From: Candidatus Moraniibacteriota bacterium
GTDB lineage: Bacteria; Patescibacteriota; Minisyncoccia; Moranbacterales; UBA2206
NCBI GenBank assembly: GCA_026396175.1
Contig: JAPLXG010000014.1
Span: forward strand, 1 to 63,870
DNA length: 63,870 nt
Direction of reading: 5' to 3'
This document shows positions 4,066 through 62,080 of the stretch, one piece after another. Each line of letters starts with the position of its first letter. Position 1 is the stretch's first letter. The notes below the pieces were generated by a model that ran no database searches, had not been told where the DNA came from, and saw nothing but the letters and a program-made list of their open reading frames with translations. The position numbers and the translations under genes were made by a program.

Positions 4066-5538
4066 ATGCAAACAAAAAAAATACTGATAAAAATAATTCT
4101 TTGGTTGATCATTCTTATTTTGCTCGGCGCAATTGCTTATGGCGCTTTTTTTCTATATAAATTAAATTCGCTGAACAATAAAATCAGCGTCTCTCAAAAA
4201 TCAGAGAACATCCTTGACACAATCGCTTCAGTTGCCCAAATCGGCAAAAAAAATCCCTTAGACCTGAAAAATACAGACGGCAGAATCAATGTTTTGCTCT
4301 TGGGCGTGGCCGGAAAAGGCAAACCTGGGCAAAATTTGACTGACACCATTATGATTGCCAGCCTCAATCGGAAGACCAACCAGGTCGCCCTCCTTTCTCT
4401 TCCTCGCGATCTTTTTGTTAGCGTACCGGATTCCAACTGGCAAACAAAAATCAACGCCGTCTATCAATTTGGCCTCAATAACGCCAAAAGTGAAAGTGAA
4501 GCGATTAATCCGCTCCTTAGCACGATAAAAAATATCACCACGCTCGACATTCACTACTACGCCGTACTTAATTTTGATGGATTCACTAAGGTGATCGATG
4601 CCGTCGGTGGAGTAAATATTACCAACGCCCGAGATCTTTTTGACGCTCGCTACCCCGGACCAAATTACAGCTATGAAACTTTTGATCTCAAAAAAGGCTT
4701 TCAACATTTGAATGGCGACCTCGCCTTGAAATATGCCCGCGAACGCCACGATGATCCAGAAGGAGATTTTGGTCGCGCCAAAAGACAACAAGAAATAATC
4801 CAAGCAACAAAAAATAAAGTTTTTTCCACTGGTACTTTGTTTAATATTGTTTCGATCAATAATCTTTTCAATGCTCTCGGGGATAATGTCAAAACAAACA
4901 TAACTTCACGCGAACTGGAAAGTTTTTTTGAACTGAGCACTAAATTAGATACCAACAATATCATAAACTCGACCGTCGACGCTTGGAACAAAGATAGTTT
5001 GCTCAAAGTTTCCCATGTTTTTTATGGCGACACGCCGGCCTTCATCCTCATTCCGCGCGTCGGAAACTACAGCGAAATTCAAGACTTGGCGCAAAATATT
5101 TTTGACCTCAACATCCTCAAAAGACGCCGCGACGAAATCGCGAATGAAAACGCCTCAGTTGCGCTGATTAATAAAAGCGGCGATAATAGTATTGTCAGCA
5201 AAATTCAAAAATTGCTCAGTGAAAATTTGGTCTATAAAAACGTATCCGTCATCAACGACCCCGGAAAGGACTTGGAACCAGTAACTAATGTTTATGATTC
5301 TAATTCAGGCGTAAAACCTTTCACACTTGATGAAATCGCCACGCGCCTTCCGGCCAAGGTTTCCTACTCTGTGCCGGATAAATATACGCGGATAACTGCT
5401 CAAAAATCGCCAGATATTGTGGTCGTGATTGGCAAGGATTTGATTGATAAATATGCGATGCCAGAAGACTCAATTGATGATTTCAAGAAAGCTCAAGATG
5501 ACCAAGATTATTTGAAAATGCAAGATAAATCTAATTAA
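4066..5538 (+). CDS. LCP (LytR-CpsA-Psr) family cell-envelope phosphotransferase
   Basis: 490 aa with an N-terminal TM segment. LCP core motifs: NVLLLGV, TDTIMIASL, LSLPRDL, RER.....GDFGR..RQQ. Confidence 0.85.
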   Translation: MQTKKILIKIILWLIILILLGAIAYGAFFLYKLNSLNNKISVSQKSENILDTIASVAQIGKKNPLDLKNTDGRINVLLLGVAGKGKPGQNLTDTIMIASLNRKTNQVALLSLPRDLFVSVPDSNWQTKINAVYQFGLNNAKSESEAINPLLSTIKNITTLDIHYYAVLNFDGFTKVIDAVGGVNITNARDLFDARYPGPNYSYETFDLKKGFQHLNGDLALKYARERHDDPEGDFGRAKRQQEIIQATKNKVFSTGTLFNIVSINNLFNALGDNVKTNITSRELESFFELSTKLDTNNIINSTVDAWNKDSLLKVSHVFYGDTPAFILIPRVGNYSEIQDLAQNIFDLNILKRRRDEIANENASVALINKSGDNSIVSKIQKLLSENLVYKNVSVINDPGKDLEPVTNVYDSNSGVKPFTLDEIATRLPAKVSYSVPDKYTRITAQKSPDIVVVIGKDLIDKYAMPEDSIDDFKKAQDDQDYLKMQDKSN

Positions 5539-5566
5539 ACTAAAGCTTACACGCCTAAATTAAATC

Positions 5567-5705
5567 TGTCATCCTGAGCGGAGTCTGTACCCAGACGCAG
5601 TCGAAGGATCTACTAGCCGTAACCCAGTGCTTTCTATTTAATAGTATGATCTACGATAATGGAAAGCAGATCCTTCGACTTCGCTCCGCTCCGCTCAGGA
5701 TGACA
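5567..5705. mobile_element. MITE-like element, family A (TIR TGTCATCCTGAGCGG)
   Basis: Terminal inverted repeat TGTCATCCTGAGCGG..CCGCTCAGGATGACA with an internal GTCGAAGGATC/GATCCTTCGAC pair. Copies at 14080 and 24795. Confidence 0.85.
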
Positions 5706-5757
5706 TGGTTTGGTTGTTTTTAAGACAAACGCATAAGTCTTATAATTTTTAAATTTT

Positions 5758-6303
5758 ATGAAACTAATCATCGGCCTGGGAAATCCCGGTCAAAAATACG
5801 AAAGCACTCGGCACAATCTCGGCTTCATCTTCTTGGATAAATTACAAGGGATTTGGTCTTTGCCTGAATTTAAACTAGAAAAAAAATTTACGGCGCAAAT
5901 TTCGCATGGTGAACTGAATAATCAAAAAATCATCCTCGCCAAGCCGCAAAATTTTATGAATCTCTCCGGTGAAGCGGTGCAAAAAATTCTCGCTTTCTAT
6001 AAACTCGACGCCAAAGATTTATTGATCATCCACGATGATATTGACATAGTTTGCGGGAAATATAAGCTGGCCACAGATTCGACTTCCGCCGGACACAATG
6101 GCGTGCAAAACATCATCGACACGCTGGGCACAAAAAAATTCGCTCGCTTGCGAATTGGGATTAAAAATGAATTGACCGATAGCACCACAACTCAGCTGGA
6201 AGTTAGTGATTTTGTTTTGGGAAAATTATCCCCTGAAGAGCTGGAAAAAATCGCAGCAATCGAAAAAGGCATCATTGAAGAAATAGAAAAAATTATTGCT
6301 TAA
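5758..6303 (+). CDS. pth: Peptidyl-tRNA hydrolase
   Basis: 181 aa. N-terminal LIIGLGNPG.KY..TRHN.GF signature. Confidence 0.95.
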   Translation: MKLIIGLGNPGQKYESTRHNLGFIFLDKLQGIWSLPEFKLEKKFTAQISHGELNNQKIILAKPQNFMNLSGEAVQKILAFYKLDAKDLLIIHDDIDIVCGKYKLATDSTSAGHNGVQNIIDTLGTKKFARLRIGIKNELTDSTTTQLEVSDFVLGKLSPEELEKIAAIEKGIIEEIEKIIA

Positions 6304-6606
6304 ATTAAAAGTTGTCTTTCAAAGTTTCGCACGTAAGGTAATATCTTTTCGAGAATTATCCCAAAAAAATAAGTTTGACTTACCGGCGAAAACTAAGGAG
6401 GGTGTTTTCGCTTTCAAACTTACGCACGAAACCCTGAAAAACAATCAAATTTTCAAAAATAATACTAACTTTAAAGTATAGCACTAAACGAGCTTTTTGT
6501 CAATAAGGCAGGCTTGATGGAAAACGACAAAACGAGGTAAACGGGGAATTCAAAAAACGGGTCGACACAAATTCATGTCTTCCCGTTTTTTTCCAAGTTT
6601 ACAACT

Positions 6607-6873
6607 TCACTGTCGACGACGACCATCGCCCCTACGATACTCAGCGGAAAGCTGAGAAAAACCTTTTGATCTAGACGCAAAACCCATCTCCCCGCACGCA
6701 GTGTGGGTACTTATTGCCGCCATCTTGACATTAAGCTCTCCCGCGCCTTCACGCGTCGGAACCAGTTCTCTTTCCTTATCAGGAATTGTTTCCTCCGCTG
6801 AGGGTCGCTCATCAACCACGATCTTGCTTGGTTTTGGTTTTTTTAAAACCCTTCTTGCAAAAAAATTGTTCAT
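6607..6873 (-). CDS. Hypothetical small protein (88 aa), SD-led
   Basis: The track ORF was trimmed to the ATG preceded by GGAGGAGGGACT. The 5' context is shared with the gene at 12556. No recognisable domain. Confidence 0.5.
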   Translation of the reverse strand: MNNFFARRVLKKPKPSKIVVDERPSAEETIPDKERELVPTREGAGELNVKMAAISTHTACGEMGFASRSKGFSQLSAEYRRGDGRRRQ

Positions 6874-52862: not shown

Positions 52863-53297
52863 CTAATATACGCCTAGTTTGCCTAACTGCTCGGCGATCT
52901 CGTCAGTGTTTTTTTCGGCGCTCTTTTTATACTCATTCCACTTTGCCTCGTCCCAGATTTCCAAGCGGTTATAGATTCCGGCAATAATCACATTCTTATC
53001 GAGTCCTGCATAGTCTTTCAAATAATCCGGGATAAGGATCCGACCTTGTTTGTCCGTTTCCACATCAGTCGCTCCCGCTAGCATCAACCGCACAAAACTG
53101 CGCGTGCTTGATTCTCCCACCGGAATGGCGCCCAATTTTTCTGCCAACGCCTGCCAAACTTTCATTGGGTAAACGAATAAACATTTATCCAATCCTCGCG
53201 TCACAACAACCTTATTTTTCAGCTCACTGCGAAATTTGCTTGGCACCGCCAATCTTTTTTTCGGATCAATTAAATGTTGGTATTCGCCGATAAACAT
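52863..53297 (-). CDS. mraZ: Transcriptional regulator MraZ
   Basis: 144 aa. The FxG..... D.KGR...P motif occurs twice (DPKKRLAVPSKFR; DKQGRILIPDYL). Confidence 0.93.
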   Translation of the reverse strand: MFIGEYQHLIDPKKRLAVPSKFRSELKNKVVVTRGLDKCLFVYPMKVWQALAEKLGAIPVGESSTRSFVRLMLAGATDVETDKQGRILIPDYLKDYAGLDKNVIIAGIYNRLEIWDEAKWNEYKKSAEKNTDEIAEQLGKLGVY

Positions 53298-53303
53298 AGT
53301 GAT

Positions 53304-53434
53304 TCTCTACGAATTACGAAGTCTCTACGAATTACGAATCTGTACGAATATACGAATAAAATTCAAGCAATACATAACGATAGTCGCAATTAAACCCACA
53401 TTAGTATATTCGTACAGATTCGTAGTTCGTATAG
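53304..53434. mobile_element. MITE-like element, family F, directly upstream of mraZ
   Basis: CTCTACGAATTACGAATCTGTACGAATATACGAAT ... TATATTCGTACAGATTCGTAGTTCGTATAG. Confidence 0.8.
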
Positions 53435-53553
53435 TATTCCCCCACTCTGCTCCACTACTATTGACTACAAATCTATTTTACCCCACTAGCTCGCACTCGT
53501 CAACACATTTCTCGTAAACTAAAATTGCCCAACCTAAGCCTTTTTGTAAAAAG

Positions 53554-53633: not shown

Positions 53634-54374
53634 CTACGATTTAGAATATTGCCTCTTGTAAGCTTTAATAATTTTATCAAGCAGATCTTTCGGTTTGGCC
53701 TCATATTTTCTAAAACTATTGATATTTTCCCGATTAAAATGTAATTGCCCTTCGCCTTCGTTTCCTCGGTGTTGTCCCTTGGAATAATATCTATTGTTCG
53801 CTACATCCTTGGAAGCAAAAACCCAATATTTAATTACGTCTCGCCAAACAGCCACCCAAACAAAAACATCACTATGTCCCGGCTTTATTTGTTGGAAATT
53901 CATATCAAATGATTTTTTTGAATTCCAAGCGAGAGCCTTGATAAAAAGTGGCTCATCACTTTTGGCATCAACCGCCCTGGAAGCTTTTACTTCTATCCTG
54001 ATATGCTTCTTCTTATGCTTATAAAGGAAATCATATTCATTATCGAAACCCGGGCATTCTTTTTTTGTCGGTTTTTGTATCTCAGGAGCAATGGCGTGAA
54101 TATGAGACTGAGCCCAAGTGATGCCAAATGCTGTTGGCGATCCATATTTTTCATAAATATGCAGATATTCATTTCTCGCCAAATATTCCTCACGAATTGC
54201 CAAATAATCGTCCAGGGTTATCTTTTTCAGTCCAAATAAATTCGAAATGATATATTCATACTTATTAAAAGGATAAACCGACATCAATTCACTAAGCTTA
54301 ATCCTAAGCTTTTCCCTATTACTGGTTGGCAATGCCGCAACCAATTCTTCCAAATTTTCCGTTAGTATTTCCAT
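53634..54374 (-). CDS. Putative PD-(D/E)xK restriction endonuclease partner of the adjacent methyltransferase
   Basis: 246 aa. The candidate catalytic motif is D (NEYDF).. E-V-K (IRIEVKAS). Lies 3 nt downstream of the MTase stop. No confident family match by eye. Confidence 0.5.
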   Translation of the reverse strand: MEILTENLEELVAALPTSNREKLRIKLSELMSVYPFNKYEYIISNLFGLKKITLDDYLAIREEYLARNEYLHIYEKYGSPTAFGITWAQSHIHAIAPEIQKPTKKECPGFDNEYDFLYKHKKKHIRIEVKASRAVDAKSDEPLFIKALAWNSKKSFDMNFQQIKPGHSDVFVWVAVWRDVIKYWVFASKDVANNRYYSKGQHRGNEGEGQLHFNRENINSFRKYEAKPKDLLDKIIKAYKRQYSKS

Positions 54375-54377
54375 AAA

Positions 54378-56351
54378 TTATTTGTTAAATTCATTAATAT
54401 AATCTTTCTCTTTTGATGATAGCGTAAATTTATCCATGATATAATTATCCAATTTCATAAAATTACCCTCATTATTCATTGTCCCATCGACAAGTTCGAT
54501 AATTTCAGAAAAGATTTCTCCATTCCAAAGTGGCAATGGCAGTTGTTCAATATGACTTCGCAAGATTTTTATGCTTGAAAACTTTTTTTGAAATATAAAT
54601 TGATACAAAGAAGAATTAAACAAGGCGGCAATTACTTTTATTGGATAATTTGAGATCTTAGGAATAACAATATTAGCACTGTTCAAAGTTAGCTGCTGCT
54701 TATCATCATAAGCAAAAACCAAATATTTTGAAATGAATCGATAAATTAGTTTTTCTTTTGCACGATACTTTCCCGTCGGAGCTACTTGTTGAAATTTTTC
54801 CGGCACAAATTGAATGTAGCTCGAAGGCTTATCTAATATGAACTTTTCAACGTCTTTCCCTTTGTAAATAGGCTCAAATCCGTCTTTTGGCTCATCTGCA
54901 ATAAATTCTTTGTTATTTCCAGTAACAATTCCCAATGCCCAATCAGCCTTATTTTCCAAAGTTGTATGCTTCGCTGAATATATTTTACTAATTATTTCAG
55001 CGTCGAATTCACTTGCGTGAATATCGAAAACCAAATCTTGATTCTGGAGCCATCTTGTTTGCTCAATACTATAACTCTTGTTTTCTTTGCAAATCACTAT
55101 TCTACCATTATTCACCTCACTCTTTTTGAAATCCAACCTAATGACAGGAGTAAAAACATTTTTGAAAACTCGATTAAGATAGGTTATCTTTTTAATTTGA
55201 GCATTTTTTAAAATAATTCCTCGTATATCTTTATGCGTTTTTACATTTAAAATTGACTCTGGTAAAATAAACGAGCTTATTCCGCCATCACAAAGCAAAT
55301 CGAGACTTTTTTTGAGAAAATATGAGAAAGACTCCAGGGATGTTATCGTGGGGTAGGTTTTTTTCAGCCTCCCACTATCCTCTTTTGAAAAATGCACTCC
55401 CCACGGCGGATTCGTGGCAATAACGTCAAAATTTCTAATATTTTCATCATTTAAGCTAAATAAATCATAGTTGCCAATGTCGAAAAGTGTGTTTTTGCAA
55501 ACAATATTTGGAGCGAAATCTCTGCCTTTGAATTTTATTAAAAGATTAAGTCGAGCAATCCTGACAGCAATCTCATCAAAATCAACACCATAAATATTTT
55601 CGGGATTTTCCACAACATCAGAAAAAGCTAGTAAAAACTGTCCTGTCCCACAGCAAGGATCTAGAACTTTTGAATCTCTTTTCGCATAATCAGCTACTAT
55701 TTCGTCAACTATATTCGATGGCGTGTAATATGATCCGCTCTGAGACTTTTTTCCTTCAAGCAAAAGGGATTGATATAGAAATCCGAGAACATCCCGTTGT
55801 TTTGGAATATTACAATCAAGCAGAAAAGAAAACTCTTCTTTTATTTTTCCCTCATCTATTTCTAAAATCCAAGATATAATTTCTTCTTTAATTTGTTTGT
55901 TCGTAAAAGACAAATCCTTTTTCTGGACAACATCTTGAATGCTAACGCTTAATAACACCCCCTCTTTTTTGAGCAAGTTCAAACTAATAAGTAAAAGCGC
56001 CGGAAACAATTCTATGTTATTACTTTTTATAAAATCAACTATAAAATTAAGTTCGTCAAAACTATATCTGTCCTTTGCATACTCGTCAGGCACAAAAGTT
56101 TTATCAGCTTTCGCCTTGTTGGCACGTCTGTTTAGTTTTTCCAAATCGCCACTTAAAATTTTTGATTTAATATCCTCGACATCTTTTTTGTGAAAAAAAT
56201 GCTTCTTATCTTCAAATGTTTGCAAGTGGCCACACTTAACCCAATTTCTAACAGTTGCTGTTGAAATTCCCAAAAAAGTAGCCGCGCTTTCTAGATTTAG
56301 CACTGCTTCATTATTATTGATTATTAAATTTTTAGCGAAACCATTAGCCAT
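54378..56351 (-). CDS. N6-adenine DNA methyltransferase (gamma class, Eco57I/TaqI-like) with an N-terminal excisionase/MerR-type HTH
   Basis: Motif I VLDPCCGTGQFLL and motif IV ATNPPWG. N-terminal LESAATFLGISTATVRNWVKCGHL. Long C-terminal target-recognition region. The start was set at ATG 56351 (the track starts at an upstream TTG). Confidence 0.85.
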   Translation of the reverse strand: MANGFAKNLIINNNEAVLNLESAATFLGISTATVRNWVKCGHLQTFEDKKHFFHKKDVEDIKSKILSGDLEKLNRRANKAKADKTFVPDEYAKDRYSFDELNFIVDFIKSNNIELFPALLLISLNLLKKEGVLLSVSIQDVVQKKDLSFTNKQIKEEIISWILEIDEGKIKEEFSFLLDCNIPKQRDVLGFLYQSLLLEGKKSQSGSYYTPSNIVDEIVADYAKRDSKVLDPCCGTGQFLLAFSDVVENPENIYGVDFDEIAVRIARLNLLIKFKGRDFAPNIVCKNTLFDIGNYDLFSLNDENIRNFDVIATNPPWGVHFSKEDSGRLKKTYPTITSLESFSYFLKKSLDLLCDGGISSFILPESILNVKTHKDIRGIILKNAQIKKITYLNRVFKNVFTPVIRLDFKKSEVNNGRIVICKENKSYSIEQTRWLQNQDLVFDIHASEFDAEIISKIYSAKHTTLENKADWALGIVTGNNKEFIADEPKDGFEPIYKGKDVEKFILDKPSSYIQFVPEKFQQVAPTGKYRAKEKLIYRFISKYLVFAYDDKQQLTLNSANIVIPKISNYPIKVIAALFNSSLYQFIFQKKFSSIKILRSHIEQLPLPLWNGEIFSEIIELVDGTMNNEGNFMKLDNYIMDKFTLSSKEKDYINEFNK

Positions 56352-56379
56352 AACTCTGTTCTTAAAAAAACAAAACAAA

Positions 56380-57801
56380 TTACGTGATATTTCCGTTTTT
56401 AAACTTTTCTACTATATCGTCTACGATTTCATCATTTATACTAAAAAAATCAAATATTTCAAATAGCGGTCTAGTAAATTCCTTGACTAAATTGGCAAGA
56501 TCTTCTTCTATTTGCGCCATAGAAGTAACAATAGCAACGGCACTCTCATTTTCATCAGTCTTTCTTTCGCGAACAAATCTTTGTCCGGAGGCGCTAATTA
56601 TTCTTCCTTTCAACCCAGCATGCTTAATCTCAATAGAAAATTCCTGCATTCTGTCGACTCCAAGATTTTTATATAAATTAGCAACATACATAAGCGATTC
56701 AGCTATTCGCACAATTCTTGTGTTAAAAAATATATAGCCTGGCCTTCTCTGATCTTCAAATAAACTTTTCAGTAAATAAAATGAACCGTCTTGCTTTATA
56801 GCCCAATAGTCATAAGAAATCTGCTCTTTTTCTGTTTCAAAAATATCCTGCTTCTTAATCGAAAGCTCGGCATGAATACCAGTATTGTCTGGTTTTGGTT
56901 TATATTCTTCCACAGCATCTATGAATACACCTATCGGCCAGCCAAAAGTATTTATTTGCGAAGTTCTTGCAGCATCTTTCAATTCGTTTTTGCCCTTACT
57001 TAAAAAATGATTAGTAAGATATGATTTAACCTCCATAGAAGTTTTGATTCCAAGATTTGAAAGACCTGCTTCTGCAACTTTTCTGTGAATGGAAAACCAA
57101 TCTTTGTTATTTGAATGTGAAATAATAATTCTTGATTTTATGGTATCTAGACTTTTTTTGTTTGCCTCCAATATTAAAGGCACCTCAACATCAGCAAGCC
57201 CAGATCTACCTTTTTCTTTGACAAGATCCCATAAACTTTCACAGCTATTCAATATATTGGAAATTGCACCTGATAATATTCTCGGCTCTCCTTCGCTATT
57301 TTTATTCTTATACACATATTTTGTATCTTGAATTGCCCAGGCATTTCCCAAAACAGTCCTAAGCTGAATTTCGCAACGCATCTTCATTTCCTCGTCTCCA
57401 AAATTAATAACTTTTGAAAAATTAAAATGATACGCCCTATAATTTCCTTCTTTTTTATCTCCTATAACATCCAAATACTTTTGCTTAAGTTCACCCTCTA
57501 ATAAATCATAAATTTTTTCTCTATCACTACTGCAATGGCAAGTAATTCGAACTCCTGCAATATCTTTTATATCGAGAATGCTTTTATATTTCCTATATTT
57601 TTCAGTATCATTGTCTATGTGTGCAAGAATTGAGCTGATATTCTTTATATCATTTTGCAATCGTTGTTCTACCTCATGTATATCAACAACGTCTTTTTTT
57701 AAATTCCTTAGCTCATTTAAAAAATCATAAACTTCCAATTGAAACGATTTCAAGAAGGGTTTGTATTTTTCATAATCTAAAATTAATTGTTCCCTATTCA
57801 T
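56380..57801 (-). CDS. RelA/SpoT-domain (small alarmone synthetase / toxSAS-like) nucleotidyltransferase fused to an uncharacterised ~280-aa C-terminal domain
   Basis: DIAGVRITC, YRAYHFNF and CEIQLRTVLGNAWA match the RelA_SpoT synthetase core (DxxGxR, Y..H, ExQxRT..WA). No hydrolase or TGS domain. I recognise nothing in the C-terminal half. Confidence 0.8.
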   Translation of the reverse strand: MNREQLILDYEKYKPFLKSFQLEVYDFLNELRNLKKDVVDIHEVEQRLQNDIKNISSILAHIDNDTEKYRKYKSILDIKDIAGVRITCHCSSDREKIYDLLEGELKQKYLDVIGDKKEGNYRAYHFNFSKVINFGDEEMKMRCEIQLRTVLGNAWAIQDTKYVYKNKNSEGEPRILSGAISNILNSCESLWDLVKEKGRSGLADVEVPLILEANKKSLDTIKSRIIISHSNNKDWFSIHRKVAEAGLSNLGIKTSMEVKSYLTNHFLSKGKNELKDAARTSQINTFGWPIGVFIDAVEEYKPKPDNTGIHAELSIKKQDIFETEKEQISYDYWAIKQDGSFYLLKSLFEDQRRPGYIFFNTRIVRIAESLMYVANLYKNLGVDRMQEFSIEIKHAGLKGRIISASGQRFVRERKTDENESAVAIVTSMAQIEEDLANLVKEFTRPLFEIFDFFSINDEIVDDIVEKFKNGNIT

Positions 57802-57836: not shown

Positions 57837-57865
57837 ATTATACCACTACTCTATCTTTTCGTCAA
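57837..57865 (-). promoter_or_regulatory. Sigma70 promoter of the island (TTGACG-17-TATAAT)
   Basis: Read on the minus strand, about 35 nt upstream of the RelA/SpoT-like ATG. Confidence 0.65.
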
Positions 57866-59864: not shown

Positions 59865-61532
59865 ATGTCCCAAACATTATATCGAAAATACCGCCCAAAA
59901 AACTTTTCCGAAATCATCGGTCAAGCGCACATCGTGCGCACGCTTTCCAATGCGATTAAAAATAATCGCGTCGCTCACGCCTATCTTTTTACCGGACCGC
60001 GTGGCACTGGCAAAACTACTTTTGCGCGCATTTTTGCTAAGACGATTAATTGCCAAGACAATAAAGATGTTAATGCTTGCGAAAAATGTCCGGCATGTCT
60101 CGCCATTCAATCCGGCCAATCGCTCGATATCATCGAAATTGACGCCGCATCGAACACTGGCGTGGACAACATCCGCGAACTAAAAGAAACGATTGCCCTT
60201 CCACCGACACTTTTGAAATATAAGGTCTATATTATTGACGAGGCGCATATGCTTTCCACTGGTGCGTTTAACGCACTTTTGAAAACCCTTGAAGAACCGC
60301 CCGCTCACGTCATTTTTATTCTCGCCACAACCGAGATTCACAAAGTCCCCGCCACGATTGTTTCGCGTTGCCAAAAATTTGATTTTCCCCGCTGGCCAAT
60401 GGCGGACATCATCGAAAAGCTGACGCTCATCGCTAAGCAGGAAAAAATCACCGTGGAAAAAGAAGCCTTGGAAATGATTGCTCTCTCAGCCGAAGGCGGA
60501 ATGCGTGACGCTGAATCACTGCTCGGCCAAATTATTGCGCTGGAAGATCAAAATATTTCCGCCAAAGAGGTGGAAGAAATCCTCGGCACAGTCGACAAAA
60601 GTTTTATCGGCGACGTCGCCGAGGAGATTATGCTCAAAAATACCGGGAAAGCCTTGGCGAAAATTAATGAGCTGATTGCCGGCGGTTATGACTTGCAAAT
60701 TTTTGCCAAAGCCCTCATCAATCATTTTCGCCAACTGATGCTTCTCAAAATTGATGAGAATTTCAAGACCTATTTCACGCGCGAACTGACTGAGGATAAA
60801 ATTGAAAAACTGATCGTTCTCGCGCAAAAAAGTGAACTCTCTGAAATTGTTGCCACGATTGATTTGCTTTTGGTGGCACAAAATAAAATTTTCTCCTATC
60901 TCCTCCCCCAACTCGCCCTGGAAATTGCGATTATTAAGGCGACGCAGAAATTTCCCGCACCGGCTCAGGTGGTATCTGGTATCCGGTATGAAGTATCTGG
61001 TATAAATACAGGGAGTAATACCGTGGACAAAATAAGTGCGATGGAAACAAAAAAAATCAGTCCCCTTTCCACGCCGGAAAAAAAAATTGAACTTGCATCA
61101 ACAGAGCTACCACCAACTAAAATCACTGCCATAAATCCAGATGCACAAATCGACCGTGACCTGCTCAGGAGCCGCTGGAACCGCTTGCTCATCGAAATTC
61201 GTCCCTACAACCATTCCCTCTCCGCTCTCCTCACTAACTGCCAAGTTGTGACCACCGAGGGCAACGTCATCACCCTGGCCACGCCCTATGAGTTCTACAA
61301 AGAAAAACTGGACGACCCGGGCAATCGATTGACAATTGAGGAAGTTTTTAGTAAGATTTTAGAATTGGCCGTGCGCATCAATGTGGTCGTCGACAAGGCC
61401 CTCGCACCAGTCCAAAACTCCGCCGTCGATGACGAACTTCAACAGGCGAAGGAAAAAGAAAAAGCCACGCACGAACAATCCTCCCTCCTCAGCTCCGCGA
61501 TGGAGATTATGGGAGGGAAAATCGTGGAATAG
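59865..61532 (+). CDS. dnaX: DNA polymerase III subunit gamma/tau
   Basis: YRKYRP..F.E..GQ, GPRGTGKTT, Zn module C..C..C and SRCQ.F. Confidence 0.95.
   Translation: MSQTLYRKYRPKNFSEIIGQAHIVRTLSNAIKNNRVAHAYLFTGPRGTGKTTFARIFAKTINCQDNKDVNACEKCPACLAIQSGQSLDIIEIDAASNTGVDNIRELKETIALPPTLLKYKVYIIDEAHMLSTGAFNALLKTLEEPPAHVIFILATTEIHKVPATIVSRCQKFDFPRWPMADIIEKLTLIAKQEKITVEKEALEMIALSAEGGMRDAESLLGQIIALEDQNISAKEVEEILGTVDKSFIGDVAEEIMLKNTGKALAKINELIAGGYDLQIFAKALINHFRQLMLLKIDENFKTYFTRELTEDKIEKLIVLAQKSELSEIVATIDLLLVAQNKIFSYLLPQLALEIAIIKATQKFPAPAQVVSGIRYEVSGINTGSNTVDKISAMETKKISPLSTPEKKIELASTELPPTKITAINPDAQIDRDLLRSRWNRLLIEIRPYNHSLSALLTNCQVVTTEGNVITLATPYEFYKEKLDDPGNRLTIEEVFSKILELAVRINVVVDKALAPVQNSAVDDELQQAKEKEKATHEQSSLLSSAMEIMGGKIVE
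60968..61010. repeat. GGTATCTGGTAT-type repeat in frame in the dnaX linker region
   Basis: GGTGGTATCTGGTATCCGGTATGAAGTATCTGGTATAAATAC (VVSGIRYEVSGINT). Same family as 61533. Confidence 0.7.
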
Positions 61533-61661
61533 TATCTGGTATCTAGTATATTGTATTTGGTATTTGGTATTTGGTATTTGGTATTTGGTATTTGGTATTT
61601 GGCATTTGGCATTTGGTATTTTTTGAATTCATACCAGATACAAAATACCAGCTACTAGATA
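61533..61661. repeat. Hairpin-forming element with a (TATTTGG)n heptamer tract, between dnaX and tRNA-Gln
   Basis: The left arm GTATCTGGTATCTAGTAT is followed by about 9 heptamer units and a central GAATTC. The right arm is ATACCAGATACAAAATACCAGCTACTAGATAC. Confidence 0.85.
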
Positions 61662-61666
61662 CTAAT

Positions 61667-61738
61667 TGGGGAGTAGCCAAGCGGTAAGGCAACGGACTTT
61701 GACTCCGTCATGCGAAGGTTCGAATCCTTCCTCCCCAA
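61667..61738 (+). tRNA. tRNA-Gln (anticodon UUG)
   Basis: Hand-folded cloverleaf: acceptor TGGGGAG/CTCCCCA, anticodon stem ACGGA/TCCGT with loop CTTTGAC, and T arm GAAGG-TTCGAAT-CCTTC. Close to E. coli tRNA-Gln. No encoded CCA. Confidence 0.92.
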
Positions 61739-61752
61739 CAGTGTATATAAAA
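61733..61752 (+). repeat. Direct repeat copy 1 (tRNA 3' end + 14 nt): CCCCAACAGTGTATATAAAA
   Basis: Identical 20-mer at 61808..61827. Confidence 0.9.
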
Positions 61753-61831: not shown

Positions 61832-62080
61832 ATGCCATTCTTTGTTTACATTCTCAGAAGCATTAAAGATGGAAAACTTTATATTGGCCAAACGAACAAT
61901 CTTGAAGATAGACTTTTGAGACATAATAGCGGGAAAGTTACGGCCACGAGAAACAGAAGACCGCTTACCATAACTCATCAAGAAGAATATCCGAGCAGAA
62001 CAGAGGCAATGCAAAGAGAAAAATATTTAAAATCGTTAAAAGGAGATTTAGAGAGAAAGTTGAATATTAAATTTGAATAA
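61832..62080 (+). CDS. GIY-YIG nuclease-domain protein (stand-alone, 82 aa)
   Basis: FVYILRS..DGKLYIGQTNNLEDRLLRHNSG...E..R matches the short GIY-YIG (YhbQ-like) family. Confidence 0.85.
   Translation: MPFFVYILRSIKDGKLYIGQTNNLEDRLLRHNSGKVTATRNRRPLTITHQEEYPSRTEAMQREKYLKSLKGDLERKLNIKFE

Follow-up and report, generated by a model that had tools for sequence, protein, structure and literature searches.

Within a 63,870-nucleotide stretch of DNA from a Candidatus Moraniibacteriota bacterium (contig JAPLXG010000014.1; the whole stretch is called the window below), a minus-strand gene encodes a protein of 473 residues in which a RelQ/RelP-like small alarmone synthetase (SAS) domain is followed by a C-terminal module from a family without a name. 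The module folds confidently in structure prediction, matches no solved structure, and recurs behind many effector domains of unrelated chemistry, either in one polypeptide or as the next gene. We consider it slightly better than an even bet that the protein is a self-contained effector-plus-switch of the abortive-infection or toxin type, and the module probably serves single-protein defence or toxin systems as a common sensor or regulatory switch. A bolder version, which we hold tentatively and rate somewhat short of even, is that the module is a new hyperpromiscuous immune switch with a fold not in the PDB, which answers one conserved cue, serves at least 18 effectors and defines a new family of one- and two-gene defence systems. 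The gene and the parts of its product are as follows.

56380..57801, minus strand: synthetase-module gene, an ATG-to-stop open reading frame for the 473-residue two-domain protein; stop codon at 56380-56382
57205..57801, minus strand: N-terminal RelQ/RelP-like SAS domain, residues 1-199 (Pfam, Foldseek, conserved residues)
57298-57648, minus strand: Pfam RelA_SpoT core, residues 52-168 (PF04607 match)
57112..57204, minus strand: hypervariable helical linker, residues 200-230 (low predicted local distance difference test, pLDDT, and low identity)
56383..57111, minus strand: C-terminal module of about 240 residues, residues 231-473, family without a name (AlphaFold2 model and conservation)

Gene and domain organization

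The synthetase-module gene is real and conserved. A homologue search returned about 65 full-length homologues of 456-504 residues, with 37-59% identity over 98-100% of the query, and an identical protein in the same gene arrangement is present on contigs from other samples. None of the 10 homologues sourced from NCBI carries a name. When the N-terminal domain alone was the query of a second search, only 4 proteins came back, a small gain, and a tblastn search of plasmids gave only distant SAS matches at 24-31% identity.

According to the AlphaFold2 model of the whole protein (mean pLDDT 87.8), two domains are joined by a low-confidence linker, which is helical in the model and has a pLDDT of 47-55. 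The predicted template modelling score (pTM) of 0.54 is low and suggests that the relative orientation of the two domains is not fixed by the model. Within the branch of module proteins that carry a RelA/SpoT homologue (RSH) synthetase, the mean pairwise identity is 47.8% in the enzyme domain and 47.2% in the module, and only 15% in the linker. A Pfam scan found no HD, TGS or ACT domain, and the model shows only synthetase, linker and module. This agrees with an earlier interpretation of the same DNA, made from the letters alone (the sequence-only reading), which had noted that the hydrolase, TGS and ACT domains are missing.

The synthetase domain

The sequence-only reading had also recognized the motifs of a RelA/SpoT synthetase, and those that it quoted could all be located in the open reading frame: DIAGVRITC at residues 80-88, YRAYHFNF at 121-128, CEIQLRTVLGNAWA at 143-156 and LILEANKKSL at 209-218. 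The Pfam RelA_SpoT match has an E-value of 7.9e-13 and scores 49.1 bits, well above the gathering cut-off of 27. In an alignment of the query with 63 full-length homologues (64 sequences), R47, K53, D80, R85, Y121, H125, E144, Q146 and T149 are invariant, while S57, present in the query, is at least 90% conserved; the catalytic residues D80, E144, R85, R47, K53 and Y121 are thus all in place. The conserved residues align to the adenine-stacking Arg, the phosphate-site Lys and Ser, the Mg2+-binding Asp and Glu and the G-loop Tyr of BsRelQ and SaRelP, in which the ATP, Mg2+ and G-loop roles have been described (PMC5794853).

A Foldseek comparison of the N-terminal domain places RelP and RelQ first (E 4e-10 to 1e-9, target-normalized template modelling (TM) scores of 0.70-0.77 over about 200 columns), and the alignment spans the whole SAS fold including the flanking helices. 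CapRel follows at 6e-7 with a root-mean-square deviation of 22 Å, and long Rel enzymes at 1e-4. Family profiles give the same order, with E-values of 8e-18 to 2e-13 for RelP/RelQ and 2.5e-3 for CapRel (7ztb/9erv). Identity to RelP/RelQ is 20-24%, and the NCBIfam RelQ equivalog (GTPPhKinYjbM) is sub-threshold at 49.1 bits against a cut-off of 320. PADLOC returned a weak match to the single-gene candidate PDC-S33, which covers the synthetase core only. The enzyme domain is near neutral, with an isoelectric point (pI) of 6.5 in the query and a family median of 7.0. On these comparisons we assign the protein to the RSH superfamily and the SAS class, and predict a hydrolase-less synthetase with its catalytic set intact.

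Which acceptor would such an enzyme use? We regard synthesis of a purine-nucleotide alarmone as about twice as probable as modification of tRNA, because the closest relatives pyrophosphorylate nucleotides, because the enzyme domain is not basic, and because Pag1B, a GRel-type toxic SAS (toxSAS) that is alike in architecture, makes pppGpp and not modified tRNA (bioRxiv 10.64898/2026.04.06.716658). Pyrophosphorylation of tRNA 3' ends, put forward in the sequence-only reading, is not what a domain with a pI of about 6.5-7 and closest similarity to nucleotide-pyrophosphorylating SASs would suggest.

The C-terminal module

When residues 225-473 were modelled alone, AlphaFold2 gave a pLDDT of 94.4 and a pTM of 0.92. 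The module carries the motifs TFGWPIG (residues 285-291), YDYW (330-333), SLFED (346-350), FFNTRIVRxxE (358-368) and HxGLxGR (394-400); in a set of 283 module copies the fourth of these motifs reads FFNTRIVRxTE. Across these 283 copies the polar residues E257, D331, E349, D350, R352, R362, R365, E368, R400 and R408 are near-invariant. The net charge is about -4 and the pI is 5.7 (family median 6.2). We found in the module no membrane segments and no recognizable nuclease or protease motifs.

The libraries searched were Pfam-A (2025 copy), NCBIfam 20, PADLOC-DB 2.0, PDB and BFVD. The sequence-only reading had found nothing to match the C-terminal remainder, and the same outcome was obtained here: residues ~200-473 have no match in Pfam, NCBIfam, PADLOC or the PDB sequences, the last of which were searched with a single sequence and with two profiles. 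A Foldseek search of the PDB with the confident module model likewise gave no significant match (best E 0.014, TM <0.28). In BFVD there are two matches with E <0.001 (5.6e-4 and 7.1e-4), which are ruled out as a fold assignment by TM scores of 0.19-0.24. A fold of the alpha+beta type seen in TBP/TFIID recurs among the weak matches in both PDB and BFVD, always with TM <0.28, and was not accepted; an internal duplication resembling the TBP pseudo-repeat was rejected at the sequence level, where hhalign of the two halves returned a probability of 0.2%. Neither Pfam nor PADLOC places a sensor domain of the CBASS or Thoeris type (SAVED, STING, SLOG, CARF) on the module, and DUF4065 is not among the Pfam matches of 23 diverse modules and the query. 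The only library record of the module is a PHROG without known function, and we found no paper describing it in the literature searched. The class of prokaryotic Schlafen (pSlfn) sensors termed TBP-like, which makes up 1.5% of pSlfn fusions (PMC13056530), may or may not be the same domain.

The module extends far beyond the synthetases. In addition to the full-length relatives, the first homologue search returned many proteins whose similarity is confined to the C-terminal ~51% of the query (40-49% identity, but 65% in P0052) and that carry other N-termini: Schlafen AlbA_2, TIR/SEFIR, or a region without a Pfam domain. An HMMER search with the module alone, its matches clustered at 50% identity, gave 749 clusters at E<=1e-3, of which 148 reach E<=1e-30. 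Nearly all of these proteins carry the module at their C-terminal end, preceded by anything from 0 to about 500 residues. In a Pfam census of 84 module proteins the N-terminal partners were TIR_2 (24 proteins), SEFIR (17), TIR (10), SLFN_AlbA_2, ParA-like (AAA_31/CbiA) and CAP12-PCTIR_TIR (4 each), Pkinase, Nuc_deoxyrib_tr-like and RelA_SpoT (2 each), and HipA, GGDEF, HTH and DUF4325 (1 each). Clustering of the N-termini of 240 module proteins resolved at least 18 unrelated groups, the largest being TIR-like/deoxyribosyltransferase-like (75), RSH (72, a count inflated by the way the set was seeded), TIR/SEFIR (51) and AlbA_2 (14). The N-terminus of one protein, P0113, matches the PADLOC bSEFIR profile at 2e-68. 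Known roles of TIR, SEFIR, Schlafen and HipA domains are toxic or immune.

Taxonomically, the module has a patchy distribution across distant phyla and archaea. It is present in Saccharibacteria, where full-length homologues occur (L014, L032), and in Woesebacteria, Proteobacteria, Nitrospirota, Chloroflexota, Acidobacteriota, Omnitrophota, Actinomycetota, Gemmatimonadota, Myxococcota and Bdellovibrio; the archaea that carry it are Methanosarcinales and Methanoperedens.

Split pairs and exchange of effectors

In two unrelated contigs the two halves of the protein are encoded by adjacent genes. In L007 a RelA_SpoT gene (4347-4988) is followed after 12 nucleotides by a module gene (5001-5741), and in L009 the corresponding genes (49-657 and 658-1401) abut with a gap of 0 nucleotides; the stand-alone module genes encode about 246 residues. 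Each upstream protein is clearly orthologous to the N-terminal domain of the query and stops shortly past the GCExLW helix, close to query residue 199. Each downstream protein starts shortly before W235, so that the linker alone is missing. Split pairs with the effector gene upstream were also found for TIR/SEFIR (L050, L058), for PCTIR-like proteins (L088, and L090 from Bdellovibrio bacteriovorus Bd5) and for a ParA-like protein (L084). Because the same effector-module pairings occur both fused and as adjacent genes, effector and module form a functional pair.

Module similarity mostly follows the effector type, and for 64 of the 72 RSH-linked modules the nearest neighbour is also RSH-linked. 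The query is an exception. Its closest module, at 66% identity, belongs to P0052 (L097, 361-1626), a protein with a TIR-like N-terminus, and is closer to the module of the window than any RSH-linked module. At the DNA level the two modules are 69% identical over 679 nucleotides. The two proteins become similar precisely where the module starts, and their flanking genes are unrelated, which argues for recent effector swapping.

Two further gene arrangements were seen. The ParA-like branch (L072, L080, L084) has its own conserved small gene of 194-237 residues, one or two positions upstream, and may be a three-component system. In five syntenic loci from Chloroflexota/Anaerolineae (L061, L063, L068, L070, L078) the module stands alone as a gene for 248 residues with no adjoining effector gene, downstream of a class-I methyltransferase and a GAF-histidine kinase; there it may have a non-defence or trans-acting role.

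Genomic neighbourhoods and mobility

No conserved partner gene accompanies the synthetase-module gene. In an all-against-all comparison of 436 flanking genes no family occurs in more than 5 loci, and the candidates considered as partners (antitoxin, nucleoid-associated protein (NAP), cyclase, hydrolase) were rejected, the recurring families being synteny within the Chloroflexota group or HsdR. An HD gene near L005 was also discarded, as it belongs to a housekeeping cluster next to rsfS. HsdR-like genes, one of them a truncated fragment, adjoin the module gene or lie within two genes of it in 4 loci, and P0066 (L004) is located inside a type I restriction-modification (RM) operon, between hsdS and hsdR. 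P0038 (L003) is found near Fic, DUF4238 and ankyrin-repeat genes. Among 150 immediate neighbours, type I RM subunits, mad2-like methyltransferases and others recur.

The gene is often compositionally foreign, as seen in the window (below) and in L003, L004 and L005. P0038 (6001-7485 of L003), with a GC content of 0.304 against 0.552 in the flanks, is a striking case of recent horizontal acquisition; the values for gene and flanks are 0.355 and 0.422 in L005 and 0.298 and 0.346 in L004.

Divergent copies of the module occur on mobile elements. One is on the Deinococcus plasmid pDrdVI. Another is part of phrog_38563, a Schlafen-plus-module protein of the Burkholderia temperate phages phi1026b and phiE125, where it lies beside a RelE-like toxin pair; this divergent family was the only case of viral carriage found. 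In phi1026b (L093, NC_005284.1, 1556-2950) this protein is gp78, which like gp67 of phiE125 is annotated as 'ATP-binding protein'; it combines Schlafen AlbA_2 with the divergent module and is encoded at the genome end, adjoining the RelE-like toxin and a transcriptional regulator. The gp78 gene is a candidate prophage-borne defence gene.

Proposed mechanism and alternative explanations

We hypothesize that residues 1-199 would transfer the beta,gamma-pyrophosphate of ATP to an acceptor 3'-OH. The acceptor would most likely be a purine nucleotide, with (p)ppGpp or (p)ppApp as product and a drain on the NTP pool, and less likely the CCA end of tRNA. Residues 231-473 would act as an input or switch tethered by the flexible linker, such that the enzyme stays silent until a cue arrives and is then licensed. 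Control would likely operate through an altered oligomeric or inter-domain state of the enzyme domain, a general route by which effectors of such unlike kinds could be governed. TIR and SEFIR proteins, Schlafens and the tetramers of RelQ and Pag1B are governed by their assembly state. The same module, fused or encoded by a downstream gene, would serve TIR/SEFIR NADases, Schlafen RNases, HipA and other kinases and ParA-like ATPases, and a cell under infection or stress would be expected to stop growing, following the logic of abortive infection. The type II RM system next to the gene in the window would be a separate, co-resident defence. Because the module is so highly conserved, a conserved cue is favoured over a variable phage protein; candidates are some kind of nucleic acid, a nucleotide or a host factor that has been displaced. 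The direction of control could be either inhibition, as in CapRel, or activation, as in Pag1B. Observed directly are the domain layout, the conservation of the catalytic residues, the promiscuous fusions and split pairs of the module, the lack of a conserved partner gene, and the foreign composition and RM neighbourhoods; toxicity, defence role, direction of regulation, product and trigger are what we infer in this proposal.

Several observations weigh against the proposal. The toxicity or defence function of module-bearing proteins is itself inferred. The module is conserved to the same degree as the enzyme domain, unlike sensors that chase phage proteins. The active site seems divergent from that of RelP: by simple spacing Lys88, Arg91 and His190 of RelP fall on H61, N64 and T160, and there are 4 additional residues between R47 and K53. 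The close module family is absent from the viral contigs of IMG/VR, and the stand-alone Chloroflexota modules have no obvious effector neighbour. Housekeeping genes surround P0012 (L001) and P0043 (L005, near rsfS), and in both the window and L001 the gene lies near dnaX. The defence-gene signal among the 150 neighbours is modest and was counted without a background control.

Could the protein instead be a CapRel-like tRNA toxin, whose N-terminus pyrophosphorylates the tRNA 3'-CCA end and whose C-terminal cis-antitoxin is released on binding a phage structural protein? The sequence-only reading leaned this way. The fused architecture with two-gene relatives fits, as do the weak PDC-S33 match and the conservation of the Mg2+-binding Asp and the G-loop Tyr, which tRNA-modifying toxSASs need (bioRxiv 10.1101/2021.04.30.441581). 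However, CapRel is a far weaker match than RelP/RelQ both by profile and by Foldseek, the C-terminal domain shows no similarity to that of CapRel in structure or sequence, the enzyme domain is near neutral and not basic, and the module diversifies no faster than the enzyme domain, at odds with a fast-evolving sensor of phage proteins. We consider this explanation unlikely. What survives of the earlier idea is a synthetase joined to a regulatory or sensor domain, as the module is a separable partner in L007 and L009 and accompanies many other effectors; the assignment to the CapRel type does not survive.

A regulated physiological alarmone synthetase, making (p)ppGpp for stress responses in small genomes under a ligand-binding C-terminal regulator with a role like that of TGS/ACT in long RSH enzymes, is also improbable. 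Its closest known relatives, RelP and RelQ, are indeed non-toxic, the module is well conserved, and some neighbours are housekeeping genes, with dnaX within about 3 kb in the window and L001. Against this stand the presence of the same module on TIR, SEFIR, Schlafen, HipA and other toxic or immune domains, the foreign composition in the window, L003, L004 and L005, the patchy occurrence across distant phyla and archaea, the location of the gene beside or inside RM systems, and the RelQ equivalog score far below its cut-off.

Rather improbable, too, is a selfish fused toxin-antitoxin system without a defence role, in which the module would be a hyperpromiscuous antitoxin like PanA of Panacea and the locus would stabilize the RM island. 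Bicistronic layouts of toxin then partner with short gaps or overlaps, the pairing of one domain with numerous toxin families, a habit documented for PanA (PMC8832971), and the adjoining RM genes would suit such a system, which in sequence is inseparable from a defence system, many toxin-antitoxin systems acting in defence. Yet no DUF4065 (Panacea) match was obtained in the Pfam scans, and in Pag1B the isolated synthetase domain is not toxic and the partner is an activator (bioRxiv 10.64898/2026.04.06.716658). Finally, it is very improbable that the module is an output that receives or acts on a signal made by the N-terminal enzyme (alarmone, cyclic ADP-ribose-type nucleotide, c-di-GMP): TIR, GGDEF and RelA/SpoT partners do produce nucleotide signals, and a ligand pocket could be lined by the Asp, Glu and Arg residues that are so well conserved in the module. 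But no diffusible signal is made by the Schlafen RNase, HipA and other kinase, ParA-like ATPase or HTH partners, the module lacks membrane segments and recognizable nuclease or protease motifs, and modules as much as 66% identical sit on chemically unrelated enzymes, which places the module upstream of the effector rather than as a receptor for its product.

Comparison with known systems

RelQ/RelP (B. subtilis YjbM/YwaC and S. aureus RelP; PDB 5DEC, 6FGK, 6EWZ) are the best match to residues 1-199 in both sequence and structure. They are, however, single-domain proteins of about 210-230 residues, whereas the protein described here has 473 residues with a 270-residue C-terminal extension, falls below the equivalog cut-off, seems by position not to keep several ATP contacts and has the 4-residue insertion; its gene is accessory and of foreign composition, not core. 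As a multidomain protein with a sub-cut-off equivalog score it is, on present alignments, not a member of RelQ/RelP.

CapRel, a fused toxSAS (CapRel-SJ46, PDB 7ZTB; PMC9712102), resembles our protein in that one polypeptide joins an RSH synthetase at the N-terminus to a regulatory domain at the C-terminus, in having relatives with the two parts as separate adjacent genes, and in its mobile or defence contexts. It differs in that the synthetases are related only distantly and the C-terminal domain here is about twice as large, has another fold, is conserved rather than variable and serves many effectors other than RSH enzymes. As both the synthetase subfamily and the C-terminal domain fail to match, the protein is not a CapRel member.

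Similar in layout is Pag1B, the GRel toxSAS of PANGU type I systems (partner YejK-like Pag1A), in which an alpha-helical linker connects a toxSYNTH domain to a regulatory C-terminal domain without family. In Pag1B the C-terminal domain takes the activating input on partner binding, the product is (pp)pGpp, there is no basic tRNA pocket and the isolated enzyme is not toxic (bioRxiv 10.64898/2026.04.06.716658). By contrast with the ~37.5 kDa Pag1B and its small, strongly acidic 'DNA-mimic' domain, the present protein is about 55 kDa with a module of ~240 residues and a net charge of about -4. PANGU operons always include a NAP gene, and none flanks the window gene or its homologues. With no NAP gene and a module that is neither small nor strongly acidic, the protein is not a PANGU type I member, its separation from Pag1B being drawn from the description of the latter.

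Panacea (PanA, DUF4065; PMC8832971) follows the same partner-swapping logic, in which one domain is combined in bicistronic operons with many unrelated toxins including toxSASs; it differs from the present case in that DUF4065 is lacking here and the module is mostly fused to the C-terminus of the effector instead of being a separate gene. The single-protein pSlfn and bSEFIR/TIR systems are similar in another way, as sister proteins carry the module behind Schlafen AlbA_2 or SEFIR/TIR. Their logic is an effector-plus-sensor fusion (PMC13056530; PADLOC bSEFIR), prokaryotic Schlafen effectors being fused to diverse sensors (PMC13056530). The bSEFIR systems differ from our protein, whose effector is an RSH synthetase; the PADLOC bSEFIR profile covers the SEFIR part only, and therefore the C-terminus of canonical bSEFIR is a different domain. 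By analogy, the architecture would work most like CapRel or Pag1B, while in evolutionary logic it resembles Panacea or the fusions of pSlfn with sensors. To have a regulatory domain in cis is a known arrangement for RSH effectors; the module appears to be an undescribed and widely reused switch domain.

If our proposal is correct, the module gives RelA/SpoT synthetases of the toxic or immune kind a third mode of regulation, in addition to the cis-antitoxin of CapRel and the nucleoid-protein activator of PANGU, and such systems extend to small-genome uncultured bacteria such as Saccharibacteria. It would also mean that a compact conserved input domain has in evolution been combined with TIR, SEFIR, Schlafen, HipA, kinase, ParA-like and RSH effectors, and that the trigger of the module would explain the activation of hundreds of uncharacterized proteins. 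A module that folds confidently in the model and matches no solved structure is a good target for structure determination, and the natural fused and split pairs and the effector swap between P0052 and the query provide ready-made experimental controls.

The window locus

The synthetase-module gene is the first of three genes in a 4.2-kb island (53634-57801) with a GC content of 0.32-0.36 against 0.419 in the rest of the window. The island is flanked by mraZ on one side and by a divergent hypothetical gene on the other, and a search around 53.6-57.8 kb revealed no direct repeats at its edges. Its remaining features are listed here.

54378..56351, minus strand: type II N6-adenine DNA methyltransferase (HTH_17 + N6_Mtase + TaqI_C), 657 residues (Pfam; PADLOC MTase_II E 1.3e-121)
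53634..54374, minus strand: type II restriction endonuclease, 246 residues, last gene of the island (PADLOC REase_II E 2.1e-58)
57837..57865, minus strand: promoter-like TTGACG-17-TATAAT with extended -10 TG, about 36 nucleotides upstream of the ATG (consensus scan, 11/12)
53573-53555, minus strand: terminator-like hairpin 3' of the endonuclease gene (scan)

The methyltransferase gene starts 28 nucleotides past the stop codon of the synthetase-module gene on the same strand, and the endonuclease gene follows 3 nucleotides beyond it, also on the same strand, which completes a type II RM pair. The methyltransferase is of the gamma class, has HTH_17 at its N-terminus and TaqI_C as its specificity domain, and is likewise called as a 657-residue gene in L095; it also weakly matches the MADS MAD2/MAD1 models. 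No terminator-like site lies between the synthetase-module gene and the methyltransferase gene, and the sole intergenic site of this kind on that strand is the one after the endonuclease gene. Together with the strong promoter-like site, a pattern match of a type that is no more frequent in the region than in its shuffles, this makes co-transcription of the three genes possible. In view of the flanking-gene comparison, the RM genes are neighbours and not conserved partners of the synthetase-module gene.

On the other side of the island, dnaX is located at 59865-61532 on the plus strand, and in the distantly related L001 at 5704-6813, about 2-3 kb from the synthetase-module gene in both. The two DnaX proteins are 49% identical, a value equal to that of the two synthetase proteins, and the intervening genes are unrelated. 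The shared vicinity could reflect an insertion hot spot or old vertical inheritance.

Three observations concern other parts of the window. Just upstream of mraZ (52863-53297, minus strand), the region 53304-53439 contains two perfect tandem copies of the 17-nucleotide unit TCTCTACGAATTACGAA inside a 40-nucleotide inverted repeat, whose arms (53318-53357 and 53400-53439) are 88% complementary; it may be a putative MraZ operator at the head of the dcw cluster. Downstream of dnaX, at 61381-61626, repetitive-peptide open reading frames on both strands (WYLVFGIWYLVFGIW) suggest a short tandem DNA repeat. A tRNA-Gln gene at 61667-61739 is followed by an open reading frame for 82 residues (61832-62080) that resembles a GIY-YIG nuclease domain.

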